Notes: a model not told the origin generated them from the sequence alone. 64,000 nt of DNA from Anaerolineales bacterium (GCA_034429745.1 DAOUFY010000014.1:23538-87537); one strand, 5' to 3'; positions 30,101 through 54,000 are shown, counted from the stretch's first letter. Numbers and translations: made by a program.

Positions 30101-30402
30101 ATAGCTTTGACGATGTGATGGCTTAGATATGTATTGCTGATGGTGTGGAGGGTTTCAAGATCTCGTTCTGCGAGCGGTTTGGCAATAACGGAAGCTAGGG
30201 TGCGCATATGAGCTTCAGCATCATGATCTAGTTCATGACGGAGCGTAATTGCAGTATAATAATAACTAAGCCCACTGGCTATGAAAGCAAAAAGGATCAG
30301 CACTATGGCAAGACTAAAGACAAACTGCCTTGTCAGTGAATTTTTTTGAAAGATGAGTTTTAAGTACCCAAACGAAAAGCGTTCCATTTGGTTGACCAAC
30401 AA
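27139..30402 (-). CDS. Membrane multi-sensor histidine kinase: TM-periplasmic-TM-HAMP-PAS-GAF-PAS-PAS-HisKA-HATPase
   Basis: 1087 aa. H-box SVSHDLRAPL; NLLSNAWKF, DDGAGFD, GTGIGLA. The C-terminal ~230 aa are paralogous to the 1447-aa kinase. Start is uncertain (TTG 30402 or ATG 30387). Confidence 0.9.
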   Translation of the reverse strand: MLVNQMERFSFGYLKLIFQKNSLTRQFVFSLAIVLILFAFIASGLSYYYTAITLRHELDHDAEAHMRTLASVIAKPLAERDLETLHTISNTYLSHHIVKAITIKDRNNNIAIRITAPLSDAAKMVKTSIVKFQDELIGEVTVIFSLKEYEEQLRRLVLISLAIFISAALVIFAATTWLLNHFLQTPLANLQHQVQALANFQEPNLLNERIVPELQPLQHAIYAAADTIRQKETELLEQRSLLRTLVDNLPTLVYIKDTQARKVLANTKDVTYCGAQHEADILGKTDLELFPAEIGAAFYADDMAVIHEGKTILNKKEKILLPNGELRWLLTSKVPFFDQHGKVIGLIGVGRDITEVITQQEELSRRAEILEQLYRAGTQLNRTLSIDDVYNTFCTFIRSMLRVDELYIFQFDAYAQMLTCGYFCLQGEAQNAHQMRALSILLKSQEELAKLPEQSTFSSPFSCYNALISQLFYGTQPLLITDQRELDSILEVLCSLKQNSPEEDQPLPSELRDYGAVILVPLLFEGKVQGIIHVISYEREAYQESQLRFLEALAIFTANALTNARLYQQAKEELAERRQAEAALARERTLLRTLIEHIPDGIYAMDAQGRKILSNRADLLNMGAQFEFEVLGKTDLEWFGEAGKQYYEDDMYVIRSGVPIINKEEHAVSKKGRQRWVLTTKLPLRDSQGNIIGLVGIGRDITEQKLANQALKESERLFRQLLDLIPHYISIKDSEGKFIIVNSALAKSFEMTPEELIGRSLLDVAMDQAEARFTLENDQQVIAGRIIQTFKDQTYTDRFGIIHWLEVTKVPIEVRGKTAVLEIGIDVTNYKLTEAALRESETRYRLLNEELERRVQERTAQLQAANQELESFSYSVSHDLRAPLRTLDGFSLALLEDYAEQLDEQGRNYLQRIRSASQRMAALIDDLLMLSRVTRAEMQIVAINLSQIARSIIEEWQAEQPYRKVTFIAPSEIIVQADRNLMGILLTNLLSNAWKFTSKHPSATIELGEFWQNGQRVIFVRDDGAGFDMAYSDRLFKAFQRLHTDAEFEGTGIGLATVQRIVLRHGGKIWAHSEVERGTTFFFILPH

Positions 30403-30508
30403 AATGCAACTGGCTTTTGAAAGATTTGCTTGCTGTAAAAGCGTCTAGTTAATGTACTGGGCTTATAATAATTATACCCCAACTTTGGTTGAAGGCAGAT
30501 AAAAACCT

Positions 30509-34564: not shown

Positions 34565-37384
34565 TCAGTCTTCTTGAGGAGGAATGTATGTCTGTGGGGT
34601 AATGCCGGCTTTAATGGCGCGGCTGATCTTTTGCAGCATTTGTTGGAGATCGATTAATTTGACTGGCTTATCTAGGTAATCATTCATGCCGGCGGCGAGA
34701 CATTTTTCGCGATCACCTTTCATTGCCATGGCTGTCATGGCAATGATAAACGGTTGCCTAGCAGGTTCGATTTCAGCTCGAATGTGTTGGGTAGCTTCGA
34801 GTCCGTCCATTTCAGGCATGTGCACATCCATTAACACAATATCATAGGATTGGCGTTTAATAGCAAGTAAAGCCTCAACACCATTGGAGGCTAAATCAGC
34901 TCGATAGCCAAGGCGTTTAAGTAATTGTGTGGCTACAATTTGATTGGTTGAATTATCTTCTACCAACAGAATATGCAGGGGCAAAATTTCTTCGGGTTCA
35001 ATAAGCTCACTTGGGAGTTGGTTGGAAGCTGCAGGCTCAAGGGCAATATCAGTTTTTTCTAACTGAACAGTAAAGGTAAAGGTTGAGCCCTTGCCGGGAA
35101 TACCTTCGCTTTCCGCCCAAATTTGCCCGCCCATCATTTCAACTAGCCGCTTGCAAATGGCTAACCCTAACCCGCTGCCGCCAAAAAGACGGGTAGTTGA
35201 GGTATCAACTTGACTGAAAGATTTAAACAGGAGATCAAGTTTGTTAGGGGGAATTCCTATACCGCTGTCGCGTATGCTGAAAAGCAGCTCATAGGTTTTT
35301 TCTGTTTCAGTTTGCAGCTGGGCGTGTAAAATAATTATCCCTTTTTCGGTAAATTTAATTGCGTTGTTAATCAGGTTGACGAGCACTTGGCGCAGTCGAG
35401 TTACATCTCCATTGACAGTTTGAGGAACATTTGGCTCAATGATGAGCTCAAAAGTAAGCCCTTTTTCGGCAATAAGTGGGTTGAATAGTGCTGCACTCTC
35501 CTCGATACAGTTGTGCAGATGAAAAGGATGTTTTTCTAAGGTTAACTTTCCCGACTCGATGCGAGAGAAATCGAGGATGTCATTGATAATGGAAAGCAAC
35601 GTTTCACTGCTCTTGCGGATGGTTTCAGCCCACATTTTTTGCTCATCATTAAGGGGGGAATCGATCAGCAAACTGCTTAAGCCGATGATGGCATTCATTG
35701 GGGTACGGATTTCATGGCTCATGTTGGCAAGGAATTCACTCTTGGCGCGGTTGGCTGCCTCGGCTTTTTCTGTTAAAATTTTAGCTTGCTGTATGGCTTC
35801 TGATAATTCTTGGTTTGCACGTTTTAAATTCTCTTCCGCTTTCCTTTGCTCGGTTATGTCGTTTCCGGCGCAGATGACGAAGCGTACATTGCCATCTGCA
35901 TCAAGCCAAGGTGTTTTTTTAATGGCGATCAATCGTCTTTCGCCTTGCACGTTCGTCAGCCATTCTTCGCAATAATAAGGGCGTTTTGTTTGAAAAACAA
36001 TCTGGTTGCTCTGCCGGCAAATCTCTGCTACATCAGGCGGGAAGAGCTCAGTGAGTTTTTTATATTCCATTTCGTTGGGAGCTTTGCCAAAAAAGTCAGC
36101 ATGAGCGCGGTTAACTTTGCCGTATGTATCCTCATTGGAAAGGAACCAGATTTGAGTATCAATGTTGTCAAGCAGCAGCTGCTGTTCTTTTGTCTGACGT
36201 TCTAGCCTGTGTTGTAACTCCCAACGCGCAGTCATATCAATAAACTGCCCAATGAAATACAATGGCTGATGAGTCTCATCGCGTACCAACGCCAAGCGCA
36301 AGAGAGCATGGATGCTATGCCCTTGTTTATGAATGTATTGTTTTTCTATGGTTACGTATTCTGCATTTCCATCGAGAAGTTGCTGGCGAGCAGCTTCGTT
36401 GTAGGGTATCTCTTCTGGCAAGGAAAGGTCGCGATAGTTTTTAGCAAGCATTTCCTCTTTGGTATAGCCTAAGGTTTGACAGAAGGCTTGGTTTACAGCT
36501 AAGTAGTTGCCTTGCAGGTCAGTTATTCCAATCGAAATGGGTGAGTGTTCAAAAACCTGGCGCAATTCTTCTTCATTCTTGCGCAAAGCCTGTTCCATTG
36601 TAATGCGCTGGGTGAGGTCTTGGACCAAAACCAAATAACCGCGATGCTGATGAAAATAAATAATTGGCGATATGGATACATGCAAATAAATCTTGCCCGA
36701 GCGGACAGTCTCATACAGGTTATGTGCTCTAACAAGGTCGAAATCAAAGAGTGACTCGTATTCGACGTTTTTGCCCGCCTTTAACTGGGCTTTTGCTTCA
36801 GCTGATATGTTGGGGTCATCAAATAGTTTAAAACCCTTGACTTGATCTACGCTGGAAATACCGAAGATTTCAAGGCAGGCGCGATTGACATCCAGCAGAG
36901 TGCCTTGGCTATCGTACAGTTCAATGCCGATTGGGGATTGATAATAAATATTTTGAAATAGTTCACGACTTTCCCAAAGTTCTTCTTGGGTTTGGATTAG
37001 ATCAGTGATGTCTTCAGCAATTCCGTAAGAAAAGAGAGGCTGCTGTCCATTTTTATCAAGTAAATAATTCCTTGTCCACACCCAGTGCACGCTTCGATCG
37101 GGCAGGATTATGCGGTATTTTTCGCTGAATTTGGCTGTAAAAAAGTGATTGAGGGTTTGCTGAATTTGAGGTTTATCTTCAGGATGAATATTGAAAAATA
37201 AAGATTGCGGATCTTCATGGAGCTGTTTTAAGTTGCCGCCCCACTTGGTTTCAAAAGCTTGGTTAATGTAAATAAATCGCTGATTTTGATGATCGAAAAG
37301 CCAGATGACTTCGCTAAACTGATCAAGCGCGCTCTTGATAAGCAGAAGGTTGTTTAGAGTAATGTTAGAAAAAAGGCGGTTCAT
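34565..37384 (-). CDS. Hybrid sensor histidine kinase / response regulator (4xPAS-HisKA-HATPase-REC)
   Basis: 939 aa. H-box [12 protein letters not shown]; [25 protein letters not shown]-terminal REC ([10 protein letters not shown].., [16 protein letters not shown]). Confidence 0.9.
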
Positions 37385-37543: not shown

Positions 37544-40500
37544 ATGGAAGAAATGATCGGAGAAGTCGTAGGTCGCTATCGAATAGAAGCTCATATTGGC
37601 GAAGGGGGCATGGCTGCTGTATATCGAGCTTATGACGAACGCCTTGATCGGCAGGTAGCGATAAAGTTTATTCGTTTCAGCGGTAGTACAGAAAGCATTA
37701 GTCCTGATTCATTGAAGCGGTTTGAGCGTGAAGCGCGTGCGTTAGCTAAATTGTCGCATCCAAATATCGTCAAAGTGTATGATTATGGTGAGCATAAAGG
37801 TGTTCCTTATTTGGTGATGGAATACCTGATGGGGGGTACGCTTCGTCAGCGTACGGGTTACCCAATGAATTACCGCGAAGCAGCCAAATTGCTGCTGCCT
37901 ATCGCCCGCGCTTTGGATTATGCTCATCGGCAAGGTATTATTCATCGCGATGTAAAACCTTCCAATATTTTGCTCACCGAAAGCGGCGAGCCAATGCTTT
38001 CAGATTTTGGAATAGCCAAACTGGTTTATAGCAAAGAAACGATCAGCTTAACAGGAGAAGGGGTATCCGTCGGCACGCCGGAATACATTGCTCCCGAGCA
38101 AAGTGTTGGAGCGGAACTTGATCAAAGGGCGGATATTTATTCTTTGGGTGTCATCTTATATGAGCTGATCACTGGACGCAAGCCCTACACCGCGGAGACC
38201 CCGGTAGCGGTTATGGTCAAGCATGTTGTTGAGCCTTTGCCGCATCCGAAAGCTTATGTCGCGGATTTGCCAGAGGAAGTTGAAGCTGTAGTGATCAAAG
38301 CGTTGGCTAAAAAGCCCCAGGATCGCTACAGCACGATGGCAGATTTTGCTCAAGTTTTAGAATCATTGCTCCATGCTCCTAGTGGAGATAAAGCTGGATC
38401 AGAGCTGAAAGCTGCCCTGCAGCAGCCAACCCAACCCAGCGATGTACAAGCTGTGAAAAGCAAAGTACAAGAATATGAACCAACCATCGATTCGTACTTA
38501 TCCCAATGGGAAGAAAAACCATCAACTCCAGAACAGTTGCCATCTCTAGGGGGAAGGCCCGTCATGGGTGCTGAGCGCAAAACCCCGCCTTCCTATCCGT
38601 CCATCAATCTTACTCAGCCAACAGAAGCTGCAGACAGTCAGAAAGCCCGACCTTGGCTGCCGCTTGGAGCATTGGCATTAGGCGTAGTTTTTGTAATCCT
38701 CCTGATCGGTGGAGCTATTATTTGGATATTACGCCCGCAACCGGAGCCACAGCAATTGACTGTTGTGCCTGCTACCCAAGAAATCACATCTGTCGCTCTA
38801 CCTGAGACTGCCACAATTCGCCCGTCAGATACTGCAACTCACTCGCCTGCGAGAGTTGAAGCAATGACCCTCATTGCAGAAAAAACTAGCGTAAAGGAAA
38901 CAATAGAACAACCTGAAGAAGACTCTAAGGCGTCGTATTTGCTTTTTGGACCTGCCAATGGGCGTTTGGTGCATCAAACCTCCAGCGATGGTTGTCTGCC
39001 GAATATGCGCTGTGCTCCTTTGCAGCAGTCTGCTGGGGTAAAAGTGCGCGATTTTATTGCTCAGGCGACATTTTACAACCCTTATCCAATAAAGCAAGGT
39101 ATATGGGATATAGGCTTTTTCTTCCGCAGCAAGTCACCCGATGAAGGCTATCGTTTAATTGTGCGTGCTGATTCGCGCTGGGAATTACGCGAAAAGTCAC
39201 CAGATGATGATTATGTGGTCGCAAGTGGGAAATTGCCGCCTAACATCTTAGATGATACCAGTGGTAGAACCAATCAACTTAAGCTGTTAGTCTATCAAAA
39301 GCAAGGGTATTTGGTGGTTAACGATCGTAATATTGTTGCGTTGAACCTTTCGTTGATTGAAGATGCCGGGGATGTTATTCTTGAAAGCGGAACTTCTGAA
39401 AACAGCCAACAACCAGGGCAAGCTACTCGATTTGAAGGGTTCACTGTATGGTCACTTCCATCTCCTCTCCAAATAGAGGAGGAAACGCTCACCTATCCAG
39501 CTGTTGGTGGAGAAATGGTGCGATTGCAGCAGGATGGAAAGTGGGATAATTTCATAGTCCGATTTGCCTTTTCGGTACCTTACCCTGCATACGTTGCTCC
39601 TTGGGAAGTTGGGCTAGCATTACGTAGTGTGAGTGAAGAAGAGGAATTTCGTTTGACAATTGCTTCTTCAACTGTTTGGGAGCTAGCTCAAAAGAAACCC
39701 AAAATTGTGCAGCCAACAGTACTTATTCAAGGAAAAGCAGGCGGCTTAATAAATATCAGAGAGGGAGAAAGCAACGAGGTGCTCATTTTTGCCTTAAAAG
39801 ATAAAGGTTTCTTTTACATAAATGGGCAGTTGGTGAAAGTGCTTGATCTATCTTCGCATCAGCGGGCAGGTGCATTAGCTGCAGTGCTAGGTTTTCATAA
39901 GGATAGCGGCTTGGCAGGCAGAACAGTAGTGATTCACTCGCTTGACGTGGTTGCTTTGCCTCAAATTGAGGAACAGCAGCAAGTCATGCTGGCGGCTACT
40001 CAATCAGCAGAACAGCTTGTTCAGCAGCAAACAGCAACACCTACACAAGCTCCATCTCAGCAGGAATTGATTCCACCCAAGAAAATAGAAATTGAACCAG
40101 ACGGCAGCTTAGCCCACCAAAATAAGGGTGTTCCTTTAACTGTGCCGCTATCAACTACAGTCAAAGACTTTTCAATTGAAGCTACGTTTTATAATCCATA
40201 TGCTGCTCCCCTAGGTACTTGGGATATAGGCTTTTATTTCCGTGATAATGGAGATCATCGTTATTGGCTGATTGTACGCGCCGATGCCAGCTGGCAGCTG
40301 ATTGAACAATTGCCATCCGAAACTAAAGTGATTGATAGTCATGAAAAACAAAAACGGAAAATGATTAATTTAGACAATACCAAGGATAAACCCAACAAAT
40401 TGCAGTTGATTGTACTGAACGAGCGCGGCTTTCTCTTTGTGAATGATAATTTTGGAGCAACCTTTGAAGTGAGCAGATGGCAAGAGCCTGGCGATTTGGG

Positions 40501-41098
40501 TTTGGTCGTTGGCTACCATCCGGGCAGTCAAAAGGAAGGTTATACAACTCGCTATGAAGGCTTATCAGCTTGGGAAATTGGCCAGCCAGGAGTTGGACCC
40601 ATGGAGGGTGAGTTTGCTCACGATGATGAAGAGAAAGTAAAGGAGCGCTTTGCCGGTGTCCAGGCAAAGAATTTCATCACAAGTGTGGTGGTTGAGAACC
40701 CTTATCCAGCCACGCGCGGCAATTGGGATGCTGGTATTGCTTTTCGTTCGGCAGGATTGGATGATCAATACCAAGTGTTAATTACATCGGGTCCTAAAGG
40801 AAGTTTTTGGTATTTTGGTAGCCGTCAACCACACTTGAAGGCAACATCGTGGTTGGCTCAGGGTCCATTGCCGGGTACAGTCAAGATGGGCTATCCAGCT
40901 GAAAACACACTCTATCTTTTTGCCCTACGCGAGAAAGGGTGGTTTATTGTCAATAATTCTTTAATTGGTGCGCTAGATTTGTATAATCGTCAGACGCCGG
41001 GTGATATTGCGGTCGGCAATGGCTTCTTACACAATTCAGAGATATCAGGTGAGTTCACGCGTTATAAGGAGTTTACTGTTTGGGAATTGCCGCGCTGA
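37544..41098 (+). CDS. Membrane Ser/Thr protein kinase with a ~790-aa ectodomain containing four tandem ~150-aa repeats
   Basis: ATG 37544 is preceded by GGAGGAG. Hanks motifs are GEGGMAAVY, VAIK, HRDVKPSN, DFG and GTPEYIAPE. Single TM at ~38654-38731. Repeats lie at ~38933-39462, 39491-39960, 40094-40578 and 40598-41095. Confidence 0.9.
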   Translation: MEEMIGEVVGRYRIEAHIGEGGMAAVYRAYDERLDRQVAIKFIRFSGSTESISPDSLKRFEREARALAKLSHPNIVKVYDYGEHKGVPYLVMEYLMGGTLRQRTGYPMNYREAAKLLLPIARALDYAHRQGIIHRDVKPSNILLTESGEPMLSDFGIAKLVYSKETISLTGEGVSVGTPEYIAPEQSVGAELDQRADIYSLGVILYELITGRKPYTAETPVAVMVKHVVEPLPHPKAYVADLPEEVEAVVIKALAKKPQDRYSTMADFAQVLESLLHAPSGDKAGSELKAALQQPTQPSDVQAVKSKVQEYEPTIDSYLSQWEEKPSTPEQLPSLGGRPVMGAERKTPPSYPSINLTQPTEAADSQKARPWLPLGALALGVVFVILLIGGAIIWILRPQPEPQQLTVVPATQEITSVALPETATIRPSDTATHSPARVEAMTLIAEKTSVKETIEQPEEDSKASYLLFGPANGRLVHQTSSDGCLPNMRCAPLQQSAGVKVRDFIAQATFYNPYPIKQGIWDIGFFFRSKSPDEGYRLIVRADSRWELREKSPDDDYVVASGKLPPNILDDTSGRTNQLKLLVYQKQGYLVVNDRNIVALNLSLIEDAGDVILESGTSENSQQPGQATRFEGFTVWSLPSPLQIEEETLTYPAVGGEMVRLQQDGKWDNFIVRFAFSVPYPAYVAPWEVGLALRSVSEEEEFRLTIASSTVWELAQKKPKIVQPTVLIQGKAGGLINIREGESNEVLIFALKDKGFFYINGQLVKVLDLSSHQRAGALAAVLGFHKDSGLAGRTVVIHSLDVVALPQIEEQQQVMLAATQSAEQLVQQQTATPTQAPSQQELIPPKKIEIEPDGSLAHQNKGVPLTVPLSTTVKDFSIEATFYNPYAAPLGTWDIGFYFRDNGDHRYWLIVRADASWQLIEQLPSETKVIDSHEKQKRKMINLDNTKDKPNKLQLIVLNERGFLFVNDNFGATFEVSRWQEPGDLGLVVGYHPGSQKEGYTTRYEGLSAWEIGQPGVGPMEGEFAHDDEEKVKERFAGVQAKNFITSVVVENPYPATRGNWDAGIAFRSAGLDDQYQVLITSGPKGSFWYFGSRQPHLKATSWLAQGPLPGTVKMGYPAENTLYLFALREKGWFIVNNSLIGALDLYNRQTPGDIAVGNGFLHNSEISGEFTRYKEFTVWELPR

Positions 41099-41115
41099 AC
41101 AAACCGCGTAGAAGG

Positions 41116-41928
41116 TTAAGGCTGCGTATCTTCTAATGTGGGGTTAGTATCTGAAAGATGCTTTAGCGGTTGAGCAGCGAGCTGATAGCGGGCAATGATT
41201 ACAGAAATATTGTCCGGCCCTTGGTTGCGATTAGCCAACTCGATGAGTTTAAGCACAGCTTGTTGGGGTGGTAGCTCCCATGCCACAGCGTGGATTTGAG
41301 CTTCAGTTACAGGACCCCATAAGCCATCGCTGCAGATGAGAACTACATCGTCTGGTTTTAGAGTGTGGTGGTGGGAGTAAATATCCAGCTCTTTGCGCTG
41401 GGCGTTGAGCGACATTGTCAGCACATTACGTTTGGGGTGATTAAGAGCTTCTTGGGGAGTGATCAGGTTCTTGCGTACCAAATCGCCAACGAAGCTGTGA
41501 TCCCAGCTGAGTTGTTGAATATTTTCTTCATCAAGGAGGTACACCCGCGTATCGCCGACATTAGCAAGAAACAGCTGATAGCCATCTAGGATAACTGCAG
41601 CAACGGTGCTACCCATATTGGCAAGCTCGGAATCCTGCTGAGAAGCGTAAACAAGTTGCTGATGAGCATATTGTATGCCTTCGCGTAAAAGAGCTTCAAA
41701 ACTGTCTCGCAATTCAGTCTGTTGATAAAAAGTTAGCAGGCTGTTGGTTATTATAGAGCTTGCTTGTTCTCCGCCGCGATGCCCTCCCATGCCATCAGCA
41801 ACAATGAATAAAGGCGGTTTAGCGGTTGCTGTGTTGGGGAGGAATACTTCCACCTTATCTTGGTTGGGCTTGCCTTGTCGTTGAAGGCCGACATCCGTTC
41901 CATAACCGACTATGAGATCCATAAGCAA
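41116..41928 (-). CDS. PP2C-family Ser/Thr phosphatase
   Basis: 270 aa with QDKV.., FIVADGMGGHRGGEQAS, VLICSDGLW and DNISVIIA motifs of bacterial PPM phosphatases. Confidence 0.9.
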   Translation of the reverse strand: MLMDLIVGYGTDVGLQRQGKPNQDKVEVFLPNTATAKPPLFIVADGMGGHRGGEQASSIITNSLLTFYQQTELRDSFEALLREGIQYAHQQLVYASQQDSELANMGSTVAAVILDGYQLFLANVGDTRVYLLDEENIQQLSWDHSFVGDLVRKNLITPQEALNHPKRNVLTMSLNAQRKELDIYSHHHTLKPDDVVLICSDGLWGPVTEAQIHAVAWELPPQQAVLKLIELANRNQGPDNISVIIARYQLAAQPLKHLSDTNPTLEDTQP

Positions 41929-41934
41929 TTTGCC

Positions 41935-44900
41935 TCAGACAACATCTTTGCGTTTTTGGAAGAAGAGAATTAAGCCGAACATGATAAGTCCTTGAGTGAT
42001 AAGAATAAACCAGCGGGATGTAACTTCACCTCTAAAAGCGCGTCCGTAATCATCATAAATAATGTTCAGCGTAGATTCGGCAGAGGCGATGGCTGATTCG
42101 CGTTCTTTTTCCCATTCGGCTTTACGGTTGCCATAAACTTCCATCTCGTCGCCATAATCCTCAAATTGTTTGCGGCTTTCGTCAGCAAAATCTGAGGCTT
42201 GTTCTTTCATCGCCAAGCGAAATTCTTCAAATTGATCCGAGCGATCGTCGGAATATTCTTGATTCTGGTCGCGCACGAGGTCAAAGTAATCCGGCACTGG
42301 TTTACCTTCCTCACTGACTCTGGGTATTTCGGTTGGTGTAGGGTAGGGTGTTGGCGTTGGCAAAGAGGTCGGTGAAGGGATTGCGGTAGGTTTGATTGGC
42401 TTGTAGGGTTCTGGTTCGCCAAGCGCGCGTTGGGAGGCTTCATCATAAAAATCGGGTGATTTTATACCCGGTATCTTACCGCAGTTTTCCTCATTAAACA
42501 GGCTTGCGCCTAAACACATGCACTGTTCTTTTTGCTTGTCAGTGAGAGCCAAGCGCTGATCTTTGGTGAGCGTTGTCCAGCAGGGATCTTTCATGAGTGG
42601 TTCAAAGACGCTGCTAGCCCGGACAAAGGCTTCAAAAGACCAGCGGCTTATGGTAAGATAGCTGAGAGGTTCGCCTAGTTTGAAAGGGATCTTTTCTAGT
42701 GGCAAGAGAACACCTGCAAAAAGCAGTTGCGGGACGATGACAGCGATGAGAACTATGAGCGAGGCATTTTGATTGGGTACAGCAGCAGAAATAAGCAAAC
42801 CTAAAAGGTAGCTTACGGTAATAGTAAGCACCAAGGTGAACATCATAGAAAAGAAGGTGCCTATATTTGGTATGACAGGGTTGACCAAAAGAATGACAAA
42901 CAGCAAAATAATAACGCCGGAATACACTGCTAAAGCTATTCCGATCCACAATTTTGAAAGGGCATAGGGAAAGATCTGCAAGCCAACTGCCCTTTCACGC
43001 TTGAAAATATCTGCTTCCTTTACAATTTCGCGTACACTGCTAAGTGAACCAACGAGGATGCCGATTACAGCTGTCATGAACCACATTGCCATGGTTTTGG
43101 GACTGTCACCATGCACGGGGTCAAACAAATTTCTGCCCCAAATGAAGTTCATGAACCCTAGCAGGGGCGCTAGTCCAAGCATCAACCCAAGGGAGACTCT
43201 ATCTTGAAAGAGAATTCGGGTGTTGCGCGAGGAAAGGATAATGAATTGCTTTAATGTCGAAGCCCTTTTTTGTGGAGGGCGTTGAACTGCTGCAGGGAGA
43301 GGCTTAGGGGCTGCAGCAGCCCGCGCGGCCATTTGTTTAGGTTGGGTCATTTCTTGACGAAAGCGCTTGTCCCACTCTTCGGGGGTGCCTTTGCTGTCGT
43401 CGTCAAGAATGCGATAAATGTCATCAAACTCCATTTCCTTTTCCATGCGCTCACGCGGGGTGCGGTACTTATCAAAATAGACCAAGGCATGTTCGGGCGC
43501 GCCGAAAAATGCCATATACCCACCGCGCGCCAAAATGATGACTTTATCGCACAGCATGACGTTTTTGGTAGCATGGGTGATGAGCATGATTGTACGTCCT
43601 TGATCGGCTAAGCGTCGCAGGAGCTTCATCATTTCATATTCTGTGCCGGGGTCTAAACCGCTGGTTGGCTCATCGAGGAAAAAGAGTTTGGGTTTGGTTA
43701 ACAGTTCCACGCCGATGGAGACGCGTTTCAATTGTCCGCCGGAAAGACGCGAGTTGAGAATATCCTTCCGAAAACTGAGCCCTAAGTTTTCGAGAGTCTC
43801 ATCAATGGCTTGCTGCCGTTCCTCTTTAGTGGTGTCCTGAGGCATGCGCAGCTGAGCAGCATAATCCAATGCCATGCTGGGGGTAAGCTCCATATGAACG
43901 ATGTCCCGTTGAGGAACATAACCAATATCATTGCGGAACATGTCGTAGTTTTCGTATAAGTTAATACCATTGACCAGCACTTCACCATCTGTTGCTGGGC
44001 GAAATCCGTTAATGGCATCTTGCAGAGTGGTTTTTCCGGCACCGCTCATGCCTACAAGAGCTACAAATTCATTCTGGCCAATATTTAGGGAGATATCCTT
44101 AAGGAGGTTTAAGTCTTTTGTAACCCACTTATTCAAATGTTTGACTTCAATGGTATAGCCTTCAGGGGTAGATTGATTCAGTTCACTGCCGGTGAGAATG
44201 AATTGTTCTAGACCGATCTTGATCTGATCGCCTTCTTTCAGCCAAGCAATACCCTGAACGCGTTTACCATTAACGAACGTGCCATTATGAGATTTCAAGT
44301 CAATAATACGAAAACGCGTGCCCATCCTTTCGAGAATGGCATGATAGCGGCTGACAAGCGGCTGATTGATGACAATATGATTATCTGCCGCGCGTCCAAT
44401 GGTTACCTTTTCCAATCCCATGAGGTTTAAAGGCTTTTTAACCATGGGTTGGGCTTTTTCAGCGTAGGAGGGTTTTGGAGAAGGCATCGAGCTAGGTGCT
44501 GCTTTGGGGTACAATAGGTTTAATGTTGCAGCGTCCTGCGGGGTTACCTGCTCCACCCAAAAGGCAACTTGAGCGATGGAAAATTTGTCTCCCGCAGATA
44601 GATTGGTTGCTTGATGAGGTGGGAGTTGCTTTCCTTGGAAGATGATGCCATTGCGCGAACCTAAATCGCATATTGAAAGCTGATTGCGGCTTATTTTAAG
44701 CGAGGCATGATGACGAGAAATCATGTTGTCATCTATTTGGATGGAACAATCTTCACTTCTGCCGAGCCGCCATTCCCCTTCGGGCAGCAGATAAATTCGT
44801 TCGGGTTGGTTAGGGAGTTCGATGTGCAGCAGCCAAACTAAGGCGGTGGGAGATGGCTGATTAGGGACCCCTGTGGAGGAATCAGCTTGGATGAGCTGCT

Positions 44901-45291
44901 CCTGAGCATGGAGTGGTTTGGCATGGGGCGGAACAGCGTCCGCAGAGACTGCTCTTACTAGCAACTGATAATTTGTTACGGTGAAGGGTTTGTCGAATGG
45001 TAATGGGAATGGCTTGCGCGGTTGTAGCGGTTTCCCTTCGACTTGAGTGCCGTTGTAAGAGCCTAAATCCATGAGGAAACAGCCATGCGGAAAAATCTCC
45101 AATTGCACATGACGGCGTGAAATGTTTTTTTCGTCAAGGATAATATCGTTATCGGAGGCTCTTCCAATGATATATTTGCCAGGATCTAAGATGAGGGTAC
45201 GTTCATGTAGCTGGTTTTGAGAAATTTCGAGCAGGTATTTTTGTACGGATTCCATTTGATATAACTCCACTGCTATCGGTTGTTGCTGCAA
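41935..45291 (-). CDS. Triple-FHA ABC transporter (3xFHA - ABC ATPase - ABC-2/ABCG-type membrane domain with large loop insertion)
   Basis: Three FHA cores (IIGRASDNDIIL..SRRHVQL..NGT; RLGRSEDCSIQI..SRHHASL..NG; TIGRAADNHIVI..SRYHAIL..NGTFVNG). Walker A GMSGAGKTT, signature LSGGQLKRVSIG, Walker B LFFLDEPTSGLD. Six or more TM helices. Confidence 0.9.
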   Translation of the reverse strand: MQQQPIAVELYQMESVQKYLLEISQNQLHERTLILDPGKYIIGRASDNDIILDEKNISRRHVQLEIFPHGCFLMDLGSYNGTQVEGKPLQPRKPFPLPFDKPFTVTNYQLLVRAVSADAVPPHAKPLHAQEQLIQADSSTGVPNQPSPTALVWLLHIELPNQPERIYLLPEGEWRLGRSEDCSIQIDDNMISRHHASLKISRNQLSICDLGSRNGIIFQGKQLPPHQATNLSAGDKFSIAQVAFWVEQVTPQDAATLNLLYPKAAPSSMPSPKPSYAEKAQPMVKKPLNLMGLEKVTIGRAADNHIVINQPLVSRYHAILERMGTRFRIIDLKSHNGTFVNGKRVQGIAWLKEGDQIKIGLEQFILTGSELNQSTPEGYTIEVKHLNKWVTKDLNLLKDISLNIGQNEFVALVGMSGAGKTTLQDAINGFRPATDGEVLVNGINLYENYDMFRNDIGYVPQRDIVHMELTPSMALDYAAQLRMPQDTTKEERQQAIDETLENLGLSFRKDILNSRLSGGQLKRVSIGVELLTKPKLFFLDEPTSGLDPGTEYEMMKLLRRLADQGRTIMLITHATKNVMLCDKVIILARGGYMAFFGAPEHALVYFDKYRTPRERMEKEMEFDDIYRILDDDSKGTPEEWDKRFRQEMTQPKQMAARAAAAPKPLPAAVQRPPQKRASTLKQFIILSSRNTRILFQDRVSLGLMLGLAPLLGFMNFIWGRNLFDPVHGDSPKTMAMWFMTAVIGILVGSLSSVREIVKEADIFKRERAVGLQIFPYALSKLWIGIALAVYSGVIILLFVILLVNPVIPNIGTFFSMMFTLVLTITVSYLLGLLISAAVPNQNASLIVLIAVIVPQLLFAGVLLPLEKIPFKLGEPLSYLTISRWSFEAFVRASSVFEPLMKDPCWTTLTKDQRLALTDKQKEQCMCLGASLFNEENCGKIPGIKSPDFYDEASQRALGEPEPYKPIKPTAIPSPTSLPTPTPYPTPTEIPRVSEEGKPVPDYFDLVRDQNQEYSDDRSDQFEEFRLAMKEQASDFADESRKQFEDYGDEMEVYGNRKAEWEKERESAIASAESTLNIIYDDYGRAFRGEVTSRWFILITQGLIMFGLILFFQKRKDVV

Positions 45292-45393
45292 TGGGAAAAT
45301 TCATGGGGTGATTTTTTGATTGATGATTTTTGATTCTATCACATTGTATATGATTTATGACGTAAATTCAATAGACTTTATGAATTCTTACAA

Positions 45394-45422
45394 TTGACTT
45401 CATTGTTAAGAAGTCATATAAT
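45394..45422 (+). promoter_or_regulatory. Near-consensus sigma70 promoter for the vWA-FHA gene, with an embedded inverted repeat
   Basis: TTGACT (45394-45399), 17-nt spacer, TATAAT (45417-45422). The 7-bp inverted repeat TGACTTC/GAAGTCA (45395-45401 and 45410-45416) overlaps the -35 element and the spacer. Confidence 0.5.
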
Positions 45423-45469
45423 CAAGGTAGTCATGCAAACTGGAGGGTGAGAACACATAGGAGGGTAAG

Positions 45470-47233
45470 ATGGGAAAATGGAATAAATGTTATGTTTTCT
45501 GTTTTTGGGTTGCCTGTATTGCAGCGGCGGTCTTGTTTGTGCTAAATTTTTCGCACTCTGCCTTTGCTAAAACCACTTATGATCTGATTATTCACTATGT
45601 GTACCCAAAAGTCAACTCTAGTGGTGATGCCTATAATGTAGAAGTATTTTTTTCAGTTCTCGATGAGGATGGCAAGCTTCAGAAAGGACTTGAAAAGGAT
45701 GACTTTACTTTAATTGAAAATGGCAACGAAATAGACATTGAGTCATTAGATAAGGTTAAAAATGAGGTACTCAATGTAATTGTAGTTATGGATAAAAGCG
45801 TTCCTTCACAGCGGCTGACTAATGAAAAAGATGCGATATCAGACTTTATAAAAGATTTGGAACGCGATGATTCCATTGGTATTTTGAGCTATGATAGTGA
45901 AATAGAGACTGTTGTTGATCTCACCACTGACCAAGATAAGGCATTGGATAAATTGAAAAAGGTGAAGAACACTTCTGAAGGGGACAACTGTCTCTATGAT
46001 GCTGTGTATGAAGCTGTAAAAATGATCGCCAAGCAGCCGCCTGGTCGCAGAGCAATTGTAGTATTGACTGATGCAGAAGATAAGTTATATAACAGTACGA
46101 AGGTGTGCAGTGCAAATACGGATGACGATGTTATTGATCTGGCAACAAGCTGGAATACGCGCGTGCCGATTTACACCCTTGCTATCACTGACGCCACAGA
46201 CGAGAAGGTATTAAAACGTATTGCTGAACGTACTGGCGGCCGCTATAAGTTCGCCAAAAACTCCGGTGATATTGCTTCTCAGTTGAATGATATCTCCTAT
46301 CAGTTCCAGAATGAATATATTATTCGCTACACCTCACAACAGAAACCTGGGGAATATACGCTGGTACTGGAAGTGGAATATAAAGGTGTACATGATGAAG
46401 ATACTCGCCCTATCGTGTATTCTGAGCTGTTATCTGGCGGAGAGCAAAGTGCTGAGATAGAGGCTTCACCCACAGTACCTCAAGTGGAGACTGCAGTTTC
46501 TCGAGTTGAACAGCTTCAACCGACTGAGGTCGTTGCATTGCCCACCCCACTCCCTAAAGAAGAGCCAAATCTCCTTTCAGGAGGAATATCTTTGTGGCTG
46601 GTAGCTCTTGGGGTCGTGATTGTCATTGGAGTGATCGTCATTTTCCTGCTCGTGGTGATGATCAGGCGCAGTGGCAGCAAGAAGCCGGCTAAACCAGCTG
46701 CCCCCTCTGCTCCACCTTCGGCACCTCCTGCAGCTAGCTTAGATGCTACTTTTGATGGTTTACTTGCCTCTCCAGCAGGTATGGCAGCTGCTCAACCAGT
46801 TGCAACGCTTACAGTGCTTGCCAGTGATGATGCTGCAATGATTGGCAAGGTGTTGATGATTGGGGCAGGCCGGACGACCATTGGCCGCAGCCCGGATAAC
46901 GATATTGTGCTCCCACAGGATAAAGGGGTATCACGACAGCACCTTGTTTTAGAATATATGGAAAACGAAGTTTTCATCGCTGAAGCGATATCAGCCGAAG
47001 GTAAACGTCCTACTTACGGTACATACATCAATGAGCAGAGAATTGGCACTGTACCTCAACCGCTCATGCACGGTTCTGAAATCCGTTTAGGCAATCGCTG
47101 CCGCATGCGCTTTGAAAAGCTGATGACCTCTGCCTCATCCGCGGAAGATAAAACCCTTGATATGTCAGCGGCGGATGACGTTACACAGGCAAGTACGGAT
47201 GACGATAAGACCGTAGTCTATAAGGGTTCATGA
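45470..47233 (+). CDS. Signal peptide - vWA ectodomain - TM - FHA domain protein
   Basis: Signal peptide ending SAFA/K. vWA blocks VIVVMDKSVPS, ILSYDS and IVVLTDAEDK. TM helix LWLVALGVVIVIGVIVIFLLVVMI, a Pro/Ala linker, and a C-terminal FHA (TIGRSPDNDIVL..SRQHLVL..YGTYINEQRI). Confidence 0.85.
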   Translation: MGKWNKCYVFCFWVACIAAAVLFVLNFSHSAFAKTTYDLIIHYVYPKVNSSGDAYNVEVFFSVLDEDGKLQKGLEKDDFTLIENGNEIDIESLDKVKNEVLNVIVVMDKSVPSQRLTNEKDAISDFIKDLERDDSIGILSYDSEIETVVDLTTDQDKALDKLKKVKNTSEGDNCLYDAVYEAVKMIAKQPPGRRAIVVLTDAEDKLYNSTKVCSANTDDDVIDLATSWNTRVPIYTLAITDATDEKVLKRIAERTGGRYKFAKNSGDIASQLNDISYQFQNEYIIRYTSQQKPGEYTLVLEVEYKGVHDEDTRPIVYSELLSGGEQSAEIEASPTVPQVETAVSRVEQLQPTEVVALPTPLPKEEPNLLSGGISLWLVALGVVIVIGVIVIFLLVVMIRRSGSKKPAKPAAPSAPPSAPPAASLDATFDGLLASPAGMAAAQPVATLTVLASDDAAMIGKVLMIGAGRTTIGRSPDNDIVLPQDKGVSRQHLVLEYMENEVFIAEAISAEGKRPTYGTYINEQRIGTVPQPLMHGSEIRLGNRCRMRFEKLMTSASSAEDKTLDMSAADDVTQASTDDDKTVVYKGS

Positions 47234-47344: not shown

Positions 47345-49438
47345 ATGGTTCAAGGTTTTCAAACGCAGCTGCGTCAAGGTGCCCCTCGCTTTAGTGGATG
47401 GCTGTGTGGGGTTGCTTGCCTTTTGTTATGTATAATTTTAGGGCTTCCTCCTCAAGACAGTTATGCCGATTCCCCAAGCGATCATTATAATTGGGCGCAG
47501 CGCGAATGGGCTTCTCCTTCGATAACCCCTTCTCCAACAATTGAACAATCTTTAGTTGTCTTCACGGTGAATAGTTTCGATGATGATGTAGATGGGAACA
47601 TCGGTGATGGAGTGTGTGTAACTCTGAGAGGGGTATGCACGTTACGCGCTGCAATTCAAGAGGCGAATGCGTCTTATGATACAGAAGTTATTCATTTATC
47701 AAGCGGCACCTATCGCCTGAGCATACCCGGCCGCGCTGAAGATAAATCGGTTACTGGAGATTTGGATATAACTAGGCCGGTGACATTGCTTGGCAGCGGT
47801 TCTGCCGCGACGATTATTGATGGGGGAGGGCTTGACCGCGTATTGGATATTGGCGAGAATGCCCATCCCGGAACGTCTGTTACCATAGCTCACCTCGCTA
47901 TCCGCAATGGCAGCGACAATGGGGAGAATGCTCCGGCCGGCATTCGGATCCGTACTTATAAGGTTACATTAGAAGACATTATTGTTTCTGATAATTTTGG
48001 TGAAGGTATTGGCATAGACAAAGGAGCATTAATCCTTAAAAATTCTATTGTGAAAAACAACAACAGCGTTGGCATAGGGGGCATTCGAGCCACTTCTTCG
48101 TCTCTGCTGATCTCGGAAAGTACCATCAGTGAAAATAAAGGTGCTTGGGGGGGGATTGCCTCAGATACATGGATCAATGTAGTCAATTCCACAATCAGCG
48201 GCAATAAAGGCAGTGCAGGTCCGGGCGGTTTGCGGCTCAGCGGCAGTGCAACCATTACCAATAGTACGATTTCGTCCAACATTGGCAGCGAGGGAGCTGC
48301 GATTTGGATAAACAACGGCAATTTGATCATTATAAACTCGACCATTGTTGCCAATCAATCCTCAGGCAGCGGTGGTGATTGGCGATCTGGATCCGCCGGC
48401 GGGATCTTCTTCAAAGGTGATAAAGGCAGTGTTATTCTTGCTCACACCATTTTAGCTGAAAATATCAGTTCAAGGGAAAGCCCAAACTGTTATGGTACCC
48501 TGCTTTCTATGGGTTATAATTTGATTGACAAACTGGATGGCTGTCATTTTATTCCCACTGAGACGGACTTGATCAATACCCCACCTTTGTTAGGCCCTTT
48601 GCAGAACAATGGAGGAACATCATTTACCCATGCCCCTTTGCAAAATAGCGCGGCAATTGACGGTGGCAGTCCGCGCGGCTGCACGTATCGGGATCAAACA
48701 CCATTGCTGCGCGATCAGCGCAACCATACCAGACCTTATGATGGCAATGGCGATGGTATAGCGGTCTGTGATATTGGCGCAGTTGAATATGATGGAGAAT
48801 CGACAGTAGTTGTTCTTCCAACGCTAACCCCAACATTGCCTTCGGGTGAACTTGTTTCTCAGCCACAGAGCACACCGGTTTCTACAGAACCTATGCCAAC
48901 GAGCACAGCGTCTGCTCAATGCAGGGAGCTTGTGGTCAATGGGGGATTTGAAAGTCAAGAAGGATGGGTTTTTCCGCAAACCGCTGCCCCGGCTGAATAT
49001 GCTCAAGGTATTGCTCACAGCGGTAAGCAATCTGTCCGTACAGGAATATTAAGCCCCTTGAATAATGTCTTAAGTTATTCGTCTATTTGGCAGCCGGTTG
49101 TTATTCCATCAGATGTAGGTAAAGCAACATTAAGTTTTTGGGTTTATCCTGTAAATACTGGACCTATTGAGGATTATCATGGAGGAGATCTGCAGTTAGC
49201 GCTGTTGTTGGATTACCCCTATTGGAGTATGGGTTTTAGTCCGCTACGGCAAACTTTGCTTTCGTTGCGCTCCAACAGCCGCACGTGGACGCACTATGAA
49301 TATGATCTTACTTCCTATGCCGGGCGGAAAATTTGGTTGTATTTTGGCACATATAATAATGGGTGGGCAGGAAGTTGGGGCAGCCCAATGGCAATGTATG
49401 TGGATGATGTTTCTCTGCTAGCTTGCTCATCTAAATAA
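47345..49438 (+). CDS. Secreted right-handed beta-helix protein with N-terminal CSLREA-type motif and C-terminal CBM-like domain
   Basis: N-terminal hydrophobic anchor/signal. DGVCVTLRGVCTLRAAIQEAN matches the CSLREA motif pattern. Many ~22-aa N/S/G/I-rich PbH1-like turns. The C-terminus starts with the VVNGGFE pattern typical of CBM4/9-like modules. Confidence 0.7.
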   Translation: MVQGFQTQLRQGAPRFSGWLCGVACLLLCIILGLPPQDSYADSPSDHYNWAQREWASPSITPSPTIEQSLVVFTVNSFDDDVDGNIGDGVCVTLRGVCTLRAAIQEANASYDTEVIHLSSGTYRLSIPGRAEDKSVTGDLDITRPVTLLGSGSAATIIDGGGLDRVLDIGENAHPGTSVTIAHLAIRNGSDNGENAPAGIRIRTYKVTLEDIIVSDNFGEGIGIDKGALILKNSIVKNNNSVGIGGIRATSSSLLISESTISENKGAWGGIASDTWINVVNSTISGNKGSAGPGGLRLSGSATITNSTISSNIGSEGAAIWINNGNLIIINSTIVANQSSGSGGDWRSGSAGGIFFKGDKGSVILAHTILAENISSRESPNCYGTLLSMGYNLIDKLDGCHFIPTETDLINTPPLLGPLQNNGGTSFTHAPLQNSAAIDGGSPRGCTYRDQTPLLRDQRNHTRPYDGNGDGIAVCDIGAVEYDGESTVVVLPTLTPTLPSGELVSQPQSTPVSTEPMPTSTASAQCRELVVNGGFESQEGWVFPQTAAPAEYAQGIAHSGKQSVRTGILSPLNNVLSYSSIWQPVVIPSDVGKATLSFWVYPVNTGPIEDYHGGDLQLALLLDYPYWSMGFSPLRQTLLSLRSNSRTWTHYEYDLTSYAGRKIWLYFGTYNNGWAGSWGSPMAMYVDDVSLLACSSK

Positions 49439-50911: not shown

Positions 50912-51057
50912 TAGGTGGACACTAAAGCCTTATGTTCAAGATGCATGCTATTTCATACGACATACTGCAAGCGCGTTTATCAGCAAGGAGAAGTAATTGC
51001 ATGTTTACATGCAGCCTAGATTTTGACATTTGAAAAGACTACATGATAGGAGCCAAG

Positions 51058-54000
51058 ATGAAGATTCATCCCTCATTCAAACAACTTTTCATTAGTGCAA
51101 TGATGTTGTGCGCCTTAATGGTGATGCTCATCCCGATGCAAAAGGGAATGGCGCAGTACGTTCAACATTCTGCCGCGGTAGAGCCAACTCCATTGCCTAT
51201 AGTAGTGCCCGACGCGGTAAAGGATAAAATTGAACCTGCTGTTATCCAAAGTTTTTCAGAAACTCCACAAAAGTTGGTTTCGGTGATTATTCAGCTGAAG
51301 GATAAGGCTGACCTGGAATCAATTGTGGATAGAAGAGATAGCAAAAGTTTGAATGAGGTTAAGCTTCATCGGGAAGAAGTTGTTCAAGCTCTAAAGGAAA
51401 CTGCTGCGCGCAGTCAGGCGCCGGTATTGGCTTTGCTCAATCAAGGTGTTCAGGCTCAAGAGGTGTCGAAGGATGTTGTATCCTTTTTTATTATCAATGC
51501 TATTGCTGCAACTATTAATCAAGACATGCTCGTTAAACTGGCTGAGTTACCTCAAGTGGAGCATATTTATCCAGATGTTGTGATTCAAATACCGCCTGAG
51601 GAAATGAAAGCCATACAAGTGAGCGACAATGATGTAGATGTGAGCGGGGTTGCTTGGGGTGTAGCTAAAATACGCGCAGACAAAGTTTGGAATGAATTGG
51701 GCATCACCGGCAAGGGTATTGTGGTTGGCAGCATTGATACCGGGGTTGACCGCGATCATCCGGCGTTGAAAGATAAGTATCGCGGCAATCGAACATATCA
51801 GGTATATAGTTTTCATGATTTTGTGGATATGAAGCCTATCCCTTATGATGATCATGGGCATGGGACTCATGTAATGGGAATAATCATGGGCGATGGCGGA
51901 GAGATGCAAAAAATTGGCATTGCACCCGGCGCAGAATGGATTGCTGCTAAAGCCATTGATGCTCAGGGATATGGTTTTGGACGTACATTGTTGATGGCAA
52001 TGGAATGGATCATGGCTCCGGAAGGGGTTGCACGGCTTGCCCCGGATATTGTCAGCAACTCCTGGGGAGGGACCTGTGATTCAAGGGATGTATTTTTTCG
52101 CCAAGCTGTTCAAAGTTGGCGTGCAGCCGGCATTATTCCAGTGTTTTCAGCCGGAAACCGAGGTCCTAAAGAAGCTACAGTGGGTTCGCCAGGTTGTTTT
52201 CCGGAAGCTATTGCAGTAGGTGCCACCAATCAGGATGACCAAGTAACTGAATGGAGTAGCAGAGGGCCGGCTTTTAAAGATTTGCTCAAGCCGGATTTCT
52301 CAGCCCCCGGCGACAAGATTCTCTCCAGCATTCCGCCTAAAGGTTATGCGAAGTTCAGCGGCACTTCTATGGCTGCTCCTGCAGTGAGCGGCTTAATCGC
52401 CCTGATGCTAGAGGCTAACCCGAATTTGTCTTTTGATCAAGTGGTGGAGATATTAAGTGAGACAGCAGTGGACTTGGGTAAAAGCGGTCCTGATTATGAT
52501 TATGGATACGGTCGGGTGGATGCTTACAAAGCTGTGTTAGCTAGCAAGGGCGAATCCGGCGGTTATGAGCTGATTGCCCCGCAAGGAAACATTTCTGAAA
52601 AACAGCCAACCTATCAATGGAAAATTATTCCTGATGCTGAGAAGATTCAACTTAAAGTTGCTGCAAAGTCGGGTGAACAGGTACTCGCCGCTTGGTACAG
52701 TGCGGCAGATATATGCAAAGGGACAACATGCACGGTAAAACCTTCTAAGACATTGGAAAGTGGAGCTTATGAATGGCAGATCCAAGCTGCTACAGCACAA
52801 GAGGTAAAACCGTGGAGTGATGCGGTTGGCTTTACTGTTCAGGAAGCTCTTCTGCCTGCCCCCAAGCCAATTTCACCGCAGGGTAAAGCTAGTGAAAATC
52901 CTCCTCTCTTTGAATGGGAGGCTGTCGCGGCTGCAAAGAAATATCAGCTAAAAGTGCTAGATGATAGCGGTAAAGAGGCAGTCTCTGCTTGGTACAATGC
53001 AAGCGATATTTGCAATACAGCCCAATGTAAAGTAAAAATAAGTTCAACGCTACAGCAAGGCTCATACCGTTGGCAGGTGCAAGCAGCTGATGACAGTTCC
53101 ACTAGCTTATGGAGTGATGAGTTGAGTTTTAATATTGAGCAAAATCAGTCTCCTGCAGTGGAGCTTATCTCACCGGTGGGAGAAATTCAAGATCCTTCAC
53201 CGACCTACACGTGGAAAGCTGCTCAAGGGGCGAGCCGCTATCAACTGAATGTCCAAAATGAATCAAAGCAGGATATTATTTCTGCATGGTATGAAGCTGC
53301 TGCTATCTGCAATGCAGAGACATGTATGGTTAAAACTACCCAAACCTTGGCAGGCGGCTCTTATACTTGGCGAATTCAACCTGCGAGCGATTCATCGAAT
53401 GGTGAATGGAGTGCTCCGCTTGCTTTTAAGGTGATTTCAGCAGCACTTAGCTCTCCTCAGCCGCTTGCTCCGCAAGGAGAAATAGTAGAGAATCAGCCGG
53501 CATTTGTATGGAAAGCTGTCAATGGGGCAAGCGAGTATAAATTTAAGTTAAGCAAAGCTTCTGGTGAAAAGGTACTAACAACGTGGTATGCTGCAGCAGA
53601 TCTCTGTAAAGCTGACCAATGTTCAGTGCGACCAGAGGTAGTCCTTGCAGAAGAAACCTACCTTTGGCAGGTGCAGGCTAGTGCAGGCAATCAAAGCAGT
53701 GATTGGAGCAAAGAAATGCAATTCACGGTTAAAACTCCTCCTCCAACTGCGCCTCAGTTGATTGCTCCGCTGGGCGACATTAAAGAAACGCAGCCGCTGT
53801 TCCAATGGAAGTCTTCCAGAGGAACAAGCGAATATCGCTTAGTGATTAGTGGAGGTGGAGGAGATATCTTGCGGACGTGGTATAAAGCTCAGGATGTGTG
53901 CCAAGAATCCACCTGCAGTGTAAAACCTAACCTAACGCTGGAAAGCGGCACCTATACTTGGCAAGTTCAGGCTGCTGCACCGGGAAGCAATGCAGTATGG

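Follow-up and report, generated by a model that had tools for sequence, protein, structure and literature searches.

The DNA considered here, called the window throughout, is a stretch of 64,000 nucleotides from an Anaerolineales bacterium (GCA_034429745.1, DAOUFY010000014.1:23538-87537), and the system in question is a group of phosphosignalling and transport genes that begins near position 37,544. The first gene (37511/37544..41098, plus strand) encodes a Ser/Thr kinase (STK) of 1195 amino acids, or 1184 from the ATG, with a Pfam Pkinase domain at residues 23-276. Two genes on the minus strand encode a PP2C phosphatase (41116..41928; 270 amino acids; Pfam PP2C) and an ATP-binding cassette (ABC) transporter, referred to here as the FHA-ABC transporter (41935..45291; 1118 amino acids), in which Pfam finds three FHA domains, ABC_tran and ABC2_membrane. 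On the plus strand, these are followed by the gene for a 587-residue vWA-FHA protein (45470..47233; Pfam VWA at 102-267 and FHA at 469-541) and the gene for a secreted beta-helix protein of 697 residues (47345..49438; CSLREA_Nterm and choice-of-anchor Q in NCBIfam). A survey of related loci suggests that the conserved core is a three-gene module consisting of the FHA-ABC transporter, the PP2C and the vWA-FHA protein, and that the kinase and the beta-helix protein are outside this module.

The genes and domains, their coordinates, the membrane topologies and the intact motifs listed in a preliminary description of this DNA were all as described when checked with Pfam, NCBIfam, hydropathy and motif searches. 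The transmembrane (TM) topologies of the STK, the transporter and the vWA-FHA protein are those given by hydropathy. Public gene calls were taken from NCBI assembly GCA_030154545.1 (contig JASEYN010000834.1), where the vWA-FHA gene is 100% identical to that of the window and the called starts are ATG codons. The farthest start of the transporter, a TTG, gives the length of 1118 residues, and the publicly called ATG at 45255 gives 1106. The transporter stop and the PP2C start are separated by 6 nt (12 nt by the public ATG) on the same strand. The transporter and vWA-FHA genes diverge across a gap of 178 bp, which widens to 214 bp if the ATG start is used, and the STK and PP2C genes are convergent, with stop codons 17 bp apart.

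The transporter is a single polypeptide with ABC_tran at residues 397-544 followed by ABC2_membrane at 682-890, which is the order of a half-transporter, and it has six TM segments. Its nucleotide-binding domain (NBD) contains a Walker A motif at residue 414, LSGGQ at 516, Walker B at 536 and an H-loop at 571, and its closest matches in a sequence search of the PDB are the NBDs of ABCA and ABCG/PDR proteins. The best NCBIfam match is TIGR00955 (ABCG/White), which covers the NBD and the transmembrane domain (TMD; residues 387-891 in all) with 223 bits against a cut-off of 736. Since this is far under the membership threshold, the transporter is ABCG-like in domain order and fold and falls outside the curated eukaryotic subfamily. 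An AlphaFold2 model of the full-length protein is of low confidence (predicted local distance difference test, pLDDT, 67; predicted template modelling score, pTM, 0.40) and served just to read off secondary structure and disorder and to compare the fold coarsely. With Foldseek, its best 50 matches in the PDB were all ABCG proteins at 20-26% identity. The core is thus an ABCG-type half-transporter and presumably works as a homodimeric exporter. Eukaryotic ABCG transporters (ABCG2, ABCG1, ABCG5/G8 and plant ABCG25/16) share the NBD-then-TMD order, the ABC-2 domain and cysteines in the loop between TM5 and TM6. In contrast, they have no FHA module, and the extracellular loop of the bacterial protein is far larger. 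This enlarged loop spans about 220 residues (869-1090; 42022..42687, minus strand) by hydropathy, AlphaFold2 and alignment. It contains four cysteines, C904, C924, C926 and C937, that are invariant in an alignment of 13 homologues, as well as a Pro/Thr-rich stretch. A charged helix, about 85 residues long (1002-1086; pLDDT about 70-84), is predicted to lead into TM6.

The regulatory module of the transporter lies in the N-terminal third (44176..45216, minus strand) and consists of FHA1 (about residues 26-115), a first linker, FHA2 (about 161-250), a second linker and FHA3 (about 283-372). Each domain has the full set of phosphothreonine (pThr)-binding residues: G43, R44, S58, H61 and N80 in FHA1; G177, R178, S192, H195 and N214 in FHA2; and G299, R300, S314, H317 and N336 in FHA3. 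The GR, SxxH and NG motifs are invariant in all three domains when the transporter is aligned with 12 homologues of 47-66% identity. Both linkers are rich in Pro, Ala, Ser and Thr and are predicted to be disordered (pLDDT below 50 at residues 135-149 and 264-293). FHA3, which adjoins the NBD, has as its best PDB match FHA-2 of the mycobacterial transporter Rv1747 (6CAH, E 8e-10), which holds the equivalent position in that protein. A third FHA domain had been thought to set this transporter apart from Rv1747. It turns out to be the norm for a large Anaerolineae family: homologues number more than 5000 proteins at E < 1e-10 (best 65% identity; named top matches all from Anaerolineae/Chloroflexota), and among the best 120 of these, three FHA domains were found in 98, four in nine, five in nine and six in one.

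The fourth FHA domain of the locus, that of the vWA-FHA protein, retains GR and SRxH; where NG would be expected it has YG, preceded by an insertion, and both changes are conserved across its subfamily. Loss of the Arg and Ser that contact pThr had been named beforehand as an observation that would count against phosphosignalling; by alignment, these residues are kept in all four FHA domains. This bears on another explanation, namely that the FHA domains serve as scaffolds without any need for phosphorylation, as in YscD of type III and EssC of type VII secretion systems, within an envelope-spanning adhesion or secretion complex that includes the vWA protein, with the kinase and phosphatase being unrelated neighbours. 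All FHA domains of the window also match Pfam Yop-YscD_cpl, the fourth has its changed Asn position and insertion, and the large extracellular loop with its long helix hints at a structural function on the outside of the membrane. However, the Yop-YscD_cpl matches fall on the FHA domains themselves with lower scores than FHA, the pThr-contacting Arg and Ser are invariant in all four domains, and genes for PP2C and kinases are found at these loci repeatedly, in several different orders. We therefore consider a scaffold role very unlikely.

The PP2C has the metal-binding motifs DGMGGH, GDTR, SDGLW and DNIS. It matches PP2C_2/PP2C in Pfam and reaches 210 bits with the NCBIfam model Stp1_PP2C_phos, against a cut-off of 230. 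From its sequence, it is predicted to be a soluble Ser/Thr phosphatase of the Stp1/PstP-like kind. The transporter-PP2C pair is kept in the closest relatives of the transporter (L077, L078 and L079; 62-65% identity, spacing 5-12 nt) and also at L085. The flanks of L077-L079 are unrelated to those of the window: upstream lies Era or a P-type ATPase, and downstream are a Zn-dependent phospholipase-like gene, RidA and glycosyltransferases. The proposal that the PP2C is a partner of the transporter is thus upheld, as the pairing recurs at FHA-ABC loci.

The vWA-FHA protein has a signal-like N-terminus ending in AFA|K and a single TM segment (373-397) followed by basic residues (RR..KK), and this arrangement predicts that the vWA domain is outside the cell and the FHA domain inside. 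We refer to this architecture as vWA-TM-FHA. The NCBIfam model TIGR03436 (acidobact_VWFA) scores above its cut-off with this protein. In the metal ion-dependent adhesion site (MIDAS) of the vWA domain, the DxSxS motif reads D108-K-S-V-P (window 45791-45805, residues 108-112) after a short deletion, with the second Ser lost. The MIDAS Thr (TTD) and Asp (TDAED) are kept, and DxSxS is intact in more distant relatives at L085 and L089-L094. The degenerate motif weakens the earlier suggestion that the vWA protein is an extracellular co-receptor, in so far as that role would depend on metal. On the cytoplasmic side, the linker before the FHA domain is variable except for a [DE]xT[FVM]D motif around Thr427 (window 46748-46750), which is kept in relatives down to 30% identity. 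This conservation makes Thr427 a candidate for a phosphorylated residue at which an FHA domain could dock.

Conservation of the neighbourhood was surveyed from two sides. On the transporter side, one genome per species was scanned, which gave 73 Chloroflexota loci whose open reading frames (ORFs) were labelled with the window's own proteins. On the other side, loci of vWA-TM-FHA relatives were collected, including a metagenome scan that started from a six-sequence alignment; the protein has 23 detectable relatives. The vWA-FHA gene adjoins an FHA-ABC gene in 9 of the 12 loci with enough flanking sequence, although these relatives are only 30-44% identical, and it does so in three gene orders. 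The order of the window, with PP2C behind the transporter and the vWA-FHA gene divergent from it, is repeated exactly in L085 (42% identity, with a three-FHA transporter) and partially in L087 and L088, where the transporter is at the contig end. In the second order, the transporter is divergent from the vWA-FHA gene and PP2C follows the latter (L091; L093 and L096-L098 in part). Here, L091 and L093 have a two-FHA transporter with kinases behind it, PP2C comes after the vWA-FHA gene in L091, and in L096-L098 PP2C follows the vWA-FHA gene. In the third order (L042 and L046), all genes are co-oriented: an FHA-kinase-FHA protein, a small FHA protein, a vWA-like-TM-FHA protein, another FHA protein, a three-FHA transporter, a kinase and a PP2C. 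Similar arrays without a detected PP2C are present in L047 and L048, and the three-FHA transporter is duplicated in L048. Since the linkage of vWA-FHA and FHA-ABC genes persists through rearrangement, it is good evidence for a functional tie, and the partnership that the preliminary description assumed for these two membrane proteins is recurrent. As a separate observation, the co-oriented arrays occur in more distant Anaerolineae, and extend from about 5-10 kb upstream of the transporter through it; one of them carries up to about 10 FHA domains.

Anaerolineae are rich in kinases, FHA proteins and FHA-ABC paralogues, and a cluster such as this one might have come together by chance and have no functional meaning. 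FHA-ABC neighbourhoods are indeed highly variable over the 73 species-level genomes, and several paralogues per genome are possible, as seen in two JANQED01 loci and in tandem copies at L021 and L048. Against this stand the 9 of 12 loci in which the vWA-FHA gene stays beside the transporter despite low identity and rearranged order, and the transporter-PP2C spacing of 5-12 nt from stop to start across four independent relatives. In addition, the 64-kb window contains one such kinase, one PP2C and two FHA proteins, and all of them lie inside 9.7 kb. Chance adjacency is, in our estimation, the least probable of the explanations weighed here.

The kinase has the motifs VAIK49, HRD145, DFG165 and APE194 and a Pkinase match with an E value of 3e-52, followed by one TM segment at about 383-407 and an ectodomain of about 788 residues by hydropathy. 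The 900 residues beyond the kinase domain gave no Pfam match. The ectodomain is made up of four repeats of about 170-185 residues each that align mutually (R1, 38930-39466; R2, 39467-40024; R3, 40085-40603; R4, 40604-41095; all plus strand). An AlphaFold2 model of R3-R4 (pLDDT 90.7) matched laminin LG4-5, the DUF1080-type protein BT3469 and tandem galectins in Foldseek. From this model, the ectodomain is predicted to consist of four divergent concanavalin A (ConA)-like jelly rolls of the LamG/3-keto-disaccharide-hydrolase-like type.

The preliminary description had joined all five genes in one island, with the kinase as a ligand sensor that would gate export, the vWA protein as a co-receptor and the beta-helix protein as cargo or functional partner. 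All five genes adjoin in the window and in a 90%-identical relative, where PP2C and the transporter are still next door. The kinase itself is intact, its ectodomain is lectin-like, and kinases are common neighbours of FHA-ABC genes generally: a Ser/Thr kinase was found at any position in the flanks of 24 of the 73 FHA-ABC loci, and in about 20 it ranks first or second among the co-oriented genes downstream. However, the particular ectodomain of this kinase was found in none of the 73 flanks. A 44% identical orthologue with the same four repeats is flanked by cytochrome and acetate kinase genes, and its vicinity lacks FHA, PP2C and ABC genes alike. The kinase gene is also convergent to the transporter operon and, therefore, is not co-transcribed with it. 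A dedicated, conserved sensor role for the kinase was rejected on these grounds. The closest transporter relatives keep ABC-PP2C alone, without a neighbouring kinase or vWA-FHA gene, so the five genes do not hold together as one unit. The beta-helix protein was seen in contigs of the same organism only; it is absent from the 73 FHA-ABC flanks and from the vWA-FHA loci of other organisms, and exporters of the ABCG type are not known to carry a protein of 697 residues that has its own signal peptide. The idea that it is cargo was likewise rejected, since it is found at no related transporter or vWA-FHA locus. With the degenerate MIDAS added, we find the five-gene island unlikely. It is plausible that the neighbouring STK serves as a local input in the window organism and is not a member of the conserved module.

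Membership of a defence system (PD-T4-6 or the MADS kinase) was also rejected for the kinase because the PADLOC and NCBIfam matches cover the generic Hanks kinase domain alone; PADLOC gave no match for the vWA-FHA or beta-helix protein. A profile of the R3-R4 repeat pair found 2425 representative clusters in a library of 1.8 billion proteins. A sample of nine members contained Ser/Thr kinases, STAND NTPases (nSTAND1, AAA+TPR and WD40 types), a trypsin-like protease and zinc ribbons, and two of the nine had weak PF06439 or Laminin_G_3 matches. These fusions indicate that the domain occurs on both exported and cytoplasmic proteins. In L085, the gene after PP2C (L085:2208-5321, minus strand) encodes a 1037-residue BNR/Sortilin-Vps10 protein with a 3-keto-disaccharide-hydrolase (ConA-like) domain. 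It holds the position that the kinase with the ConA-like ectodomain has in the window, and the two sequences are not detectably similar.

Rv1747 is, to our knowledge, the only FHA-regulated ABC transporter that has been studied, and it is used as a model of phosphorylation-driven clustering of membrane proteins. The kinase PknF phosphorylates two Thr residues in its inter-FHA linker and thereby positively regulates the transporter; its FHA module undergoes phosphorylation-enhanced phase separation and membrane clustering, which PstP reverses (PMC3138270, PMC8339232, PMC9312465). Rv1747 and the window transporter share an N-terminal FHA module with disordered linkers, then the NBD and then an ABC-2/ABCG-type TMD. 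Together with the FHA3 match, this agrees with the earlier view that Rv1747 is the closest characterised relative. As with PknF, kinases are often encoded beside members of the Chloroflexota family, and reversal by a phosphatase belongs to the mycobacterial paradigm (PMC9312465). The two systems differ in several respects. Rv1747 has two FHA domains, whereas the window transporter has three and its relatives up to six, although the vWA-FHA-linked transporters of L091 and L093 also have two. The mycobacterial phosphatase is encoded elsewhere in the genome, in contrast to the PP2C in the transporter operon here. pknF and Rv1747 form an operon, whereas the window kinase is convergent and its adjacency is conserved in the 90% relative but not beyond. 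The TM5-TM6 loop of about 220 residues, with its four conserved Cys and long helix, and the recurrent vWA-TM-FHA gene are further differences. The vWA-TM-FHA partner and the operonic phosphatase are new relative to the Rv1747 model.

By analogy with Rv1747, the interpretation that we favour, and regard as fairly probable, is that pThr-FHA interactions regulate an exporter of the Rv1747 type encoded at this locus, which has a dedicated PP2C and a vWA-TM-FHA adaptor. The exporter would present a cytoplasmic N-terminus with three canonical pThr-binding FHA domains on disordered linkers, the PP2C eraser would be co-transcribed with it, and the vWA-FHA partner would be expressed from the divergent gene. 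In the mechanism that we infer, one or more Hanks-type kinases would phosphorylate Thr residues, likely in the transporter linkers, in the [DE]xT[FVM]D motif of the vWA-FHA protein and in kinase juxtamembrane regions. The four FHA domains would then bind pThr in cis and in trans, so that the exporter is clustered or activated and tied to the vWA-FHA protein, and the operonic PP2C would reset the system. Four FHA domains on two membrane proteins, the disordered linkers, the operonic PP2C and Thr427 together point to a possible multivalent pThr-FHA network of this kind. The likeliest class of substrate would be an envelope lipid or glycoconjugate because of the transporter type and the glycosyltransferase genes beside the closest relatives.

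Several observations weigh against this interpretation. PP2C was found in the flanks of only 5 of the 73 FHA-ABC loci and a vWA relative in only 4. One vWA-FHA relative (L084) has no partner gene within 10 kb, and another (L090) is accompanied by PP2C and several kinases with no FHA-ABC gene within 8 kb. An alignment search for a conserved phospho-acceptor in the transporter linkers found that Thr residues are present and that none is conserved across the family. The missing canonical Asn of the fourth FHA domain and the degenerate MIDAS of the window protein count on the same side, as does the low confidence of the full-length transporter model. Finally, the likeness to Rv1747 is one of the FHA-2 match and domain order, not of a full-length alignment.

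Other known systems combine similar parts. The Deinococcus radiodurans operon DRA0331-DRA0334 also encodes vWA, Hanks kinase, FHA and PP2C domains together (bioRxiv 10.64898/2026.01.23.701218). It differs in having no ABC transporter, in carrying vWA and FHA on separate proteins with an FHA-like domain fused to PP2C, and in being tied to the DNA-damage kinase RqkA and not to a membrane exporter. [quoted passage not shown] In that pathway, however, the vWA domain is within the kinase, the FHA protein is soluble, the ABC-like proteins are upstream sensors and the output is the T6SS. The resemblance is one of logic and not of whole-system homology. Membership of this pathway was rejected since none of the genes found within about 10 kb is a T6SS structural gene (TssA-M, Hcp, VgrG) and TIGR03354 (VI_FHA) reaches 27.5 bits where the cut-off is 120. 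In Sulfolobus, ArnA (FHA) and ArnB (vWA) are phosphorylation-dependent partners under the control of kinases and a phosphatase (PMC6509490, PMC7472852). Those are separate cytoplasmic proteins that regulate archaellum genes, whereas the vWA domain of the window is predicted to be exported and is joined through a TM segment to an FHA domain on one chain. No description of Chloroflexota FHA-ABC transporters or vWA-TM-FHA proteins was found in the open-access literature.

These findings extend the FHA-ABC design to uncultured Anaerolineae (Chloroflexota), where it has expanded, with family members in the thousands and three to six FHA domains. They also show that an FHA-ABC locus can carry its own phosphatase, along with a partner predicted to place a vWA domain outside and an FHA domain inside the cell. 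The pThr-FHA network that may result is testable and has more parts than the mycobacterial case, with Thr427 and the inter-FHA linkers as candidate sites. A bolder idea, which we raise tentatively and consider doubtful, is that the vWA-TM-FHA protein is an integrin-like transmembrane adaptor. Its outside vWA domain would bind a ligand in the envelope or on a neighbouring cell, and on the inside its conserved pThr site and its FHA domain would lock together with the exporter's multi-FHA tail. The result would be a phosphorylation-switchable membrane cluster that couples filament contact to export. If true, this would be a widespread and undescribed signalling design of the Anaerolineae.

Several other features of the locus deserve mention. 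The interval that separates the transporter operon from the vWA-FHA gene (45292..45469) contains a sigma-70-like site, TTGACT-17-TATAAT (11/12 positions; 45394-45422, plus strand), which lies 5' of the ATG at 45470 and its GGAGGG ribosome-binding site. It also contains a weaker promoter-like site toward the transporter (45371-45343, minus strand). The promoter scan as a whole found no more sites than expected from shuffled sequence. The beta-helix protein has a CSLREA N-terminal domain, NosD-like beta-helix repeats and a choice-of-anchor Q domain in NCBIfam and no match in Pfam. The genes within about 10 kb are those for a PAS-histidine kinase, DeoR, an acyl-CoA dehydrogenase, an S8 peptidase-LysM protein and an MBOAT protein. 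Just upstream of the STK, three very large ORFs with histidine-kinase similarity lie on the minus strand (22178-26536, 27142-30444 and 34565-37384); the last, which is divergent from the STK, is a PAS/histidine kinase/receiver hybrid by Pfam, and the other two were labelled by their similarity to it. Downstream are two envelope-related genes on the plus strand, which encode a 1356-residue S8 peptidase with LysM (51043-55128) and an MBOAT-family membrane O-acyltransferase (55263-56702).

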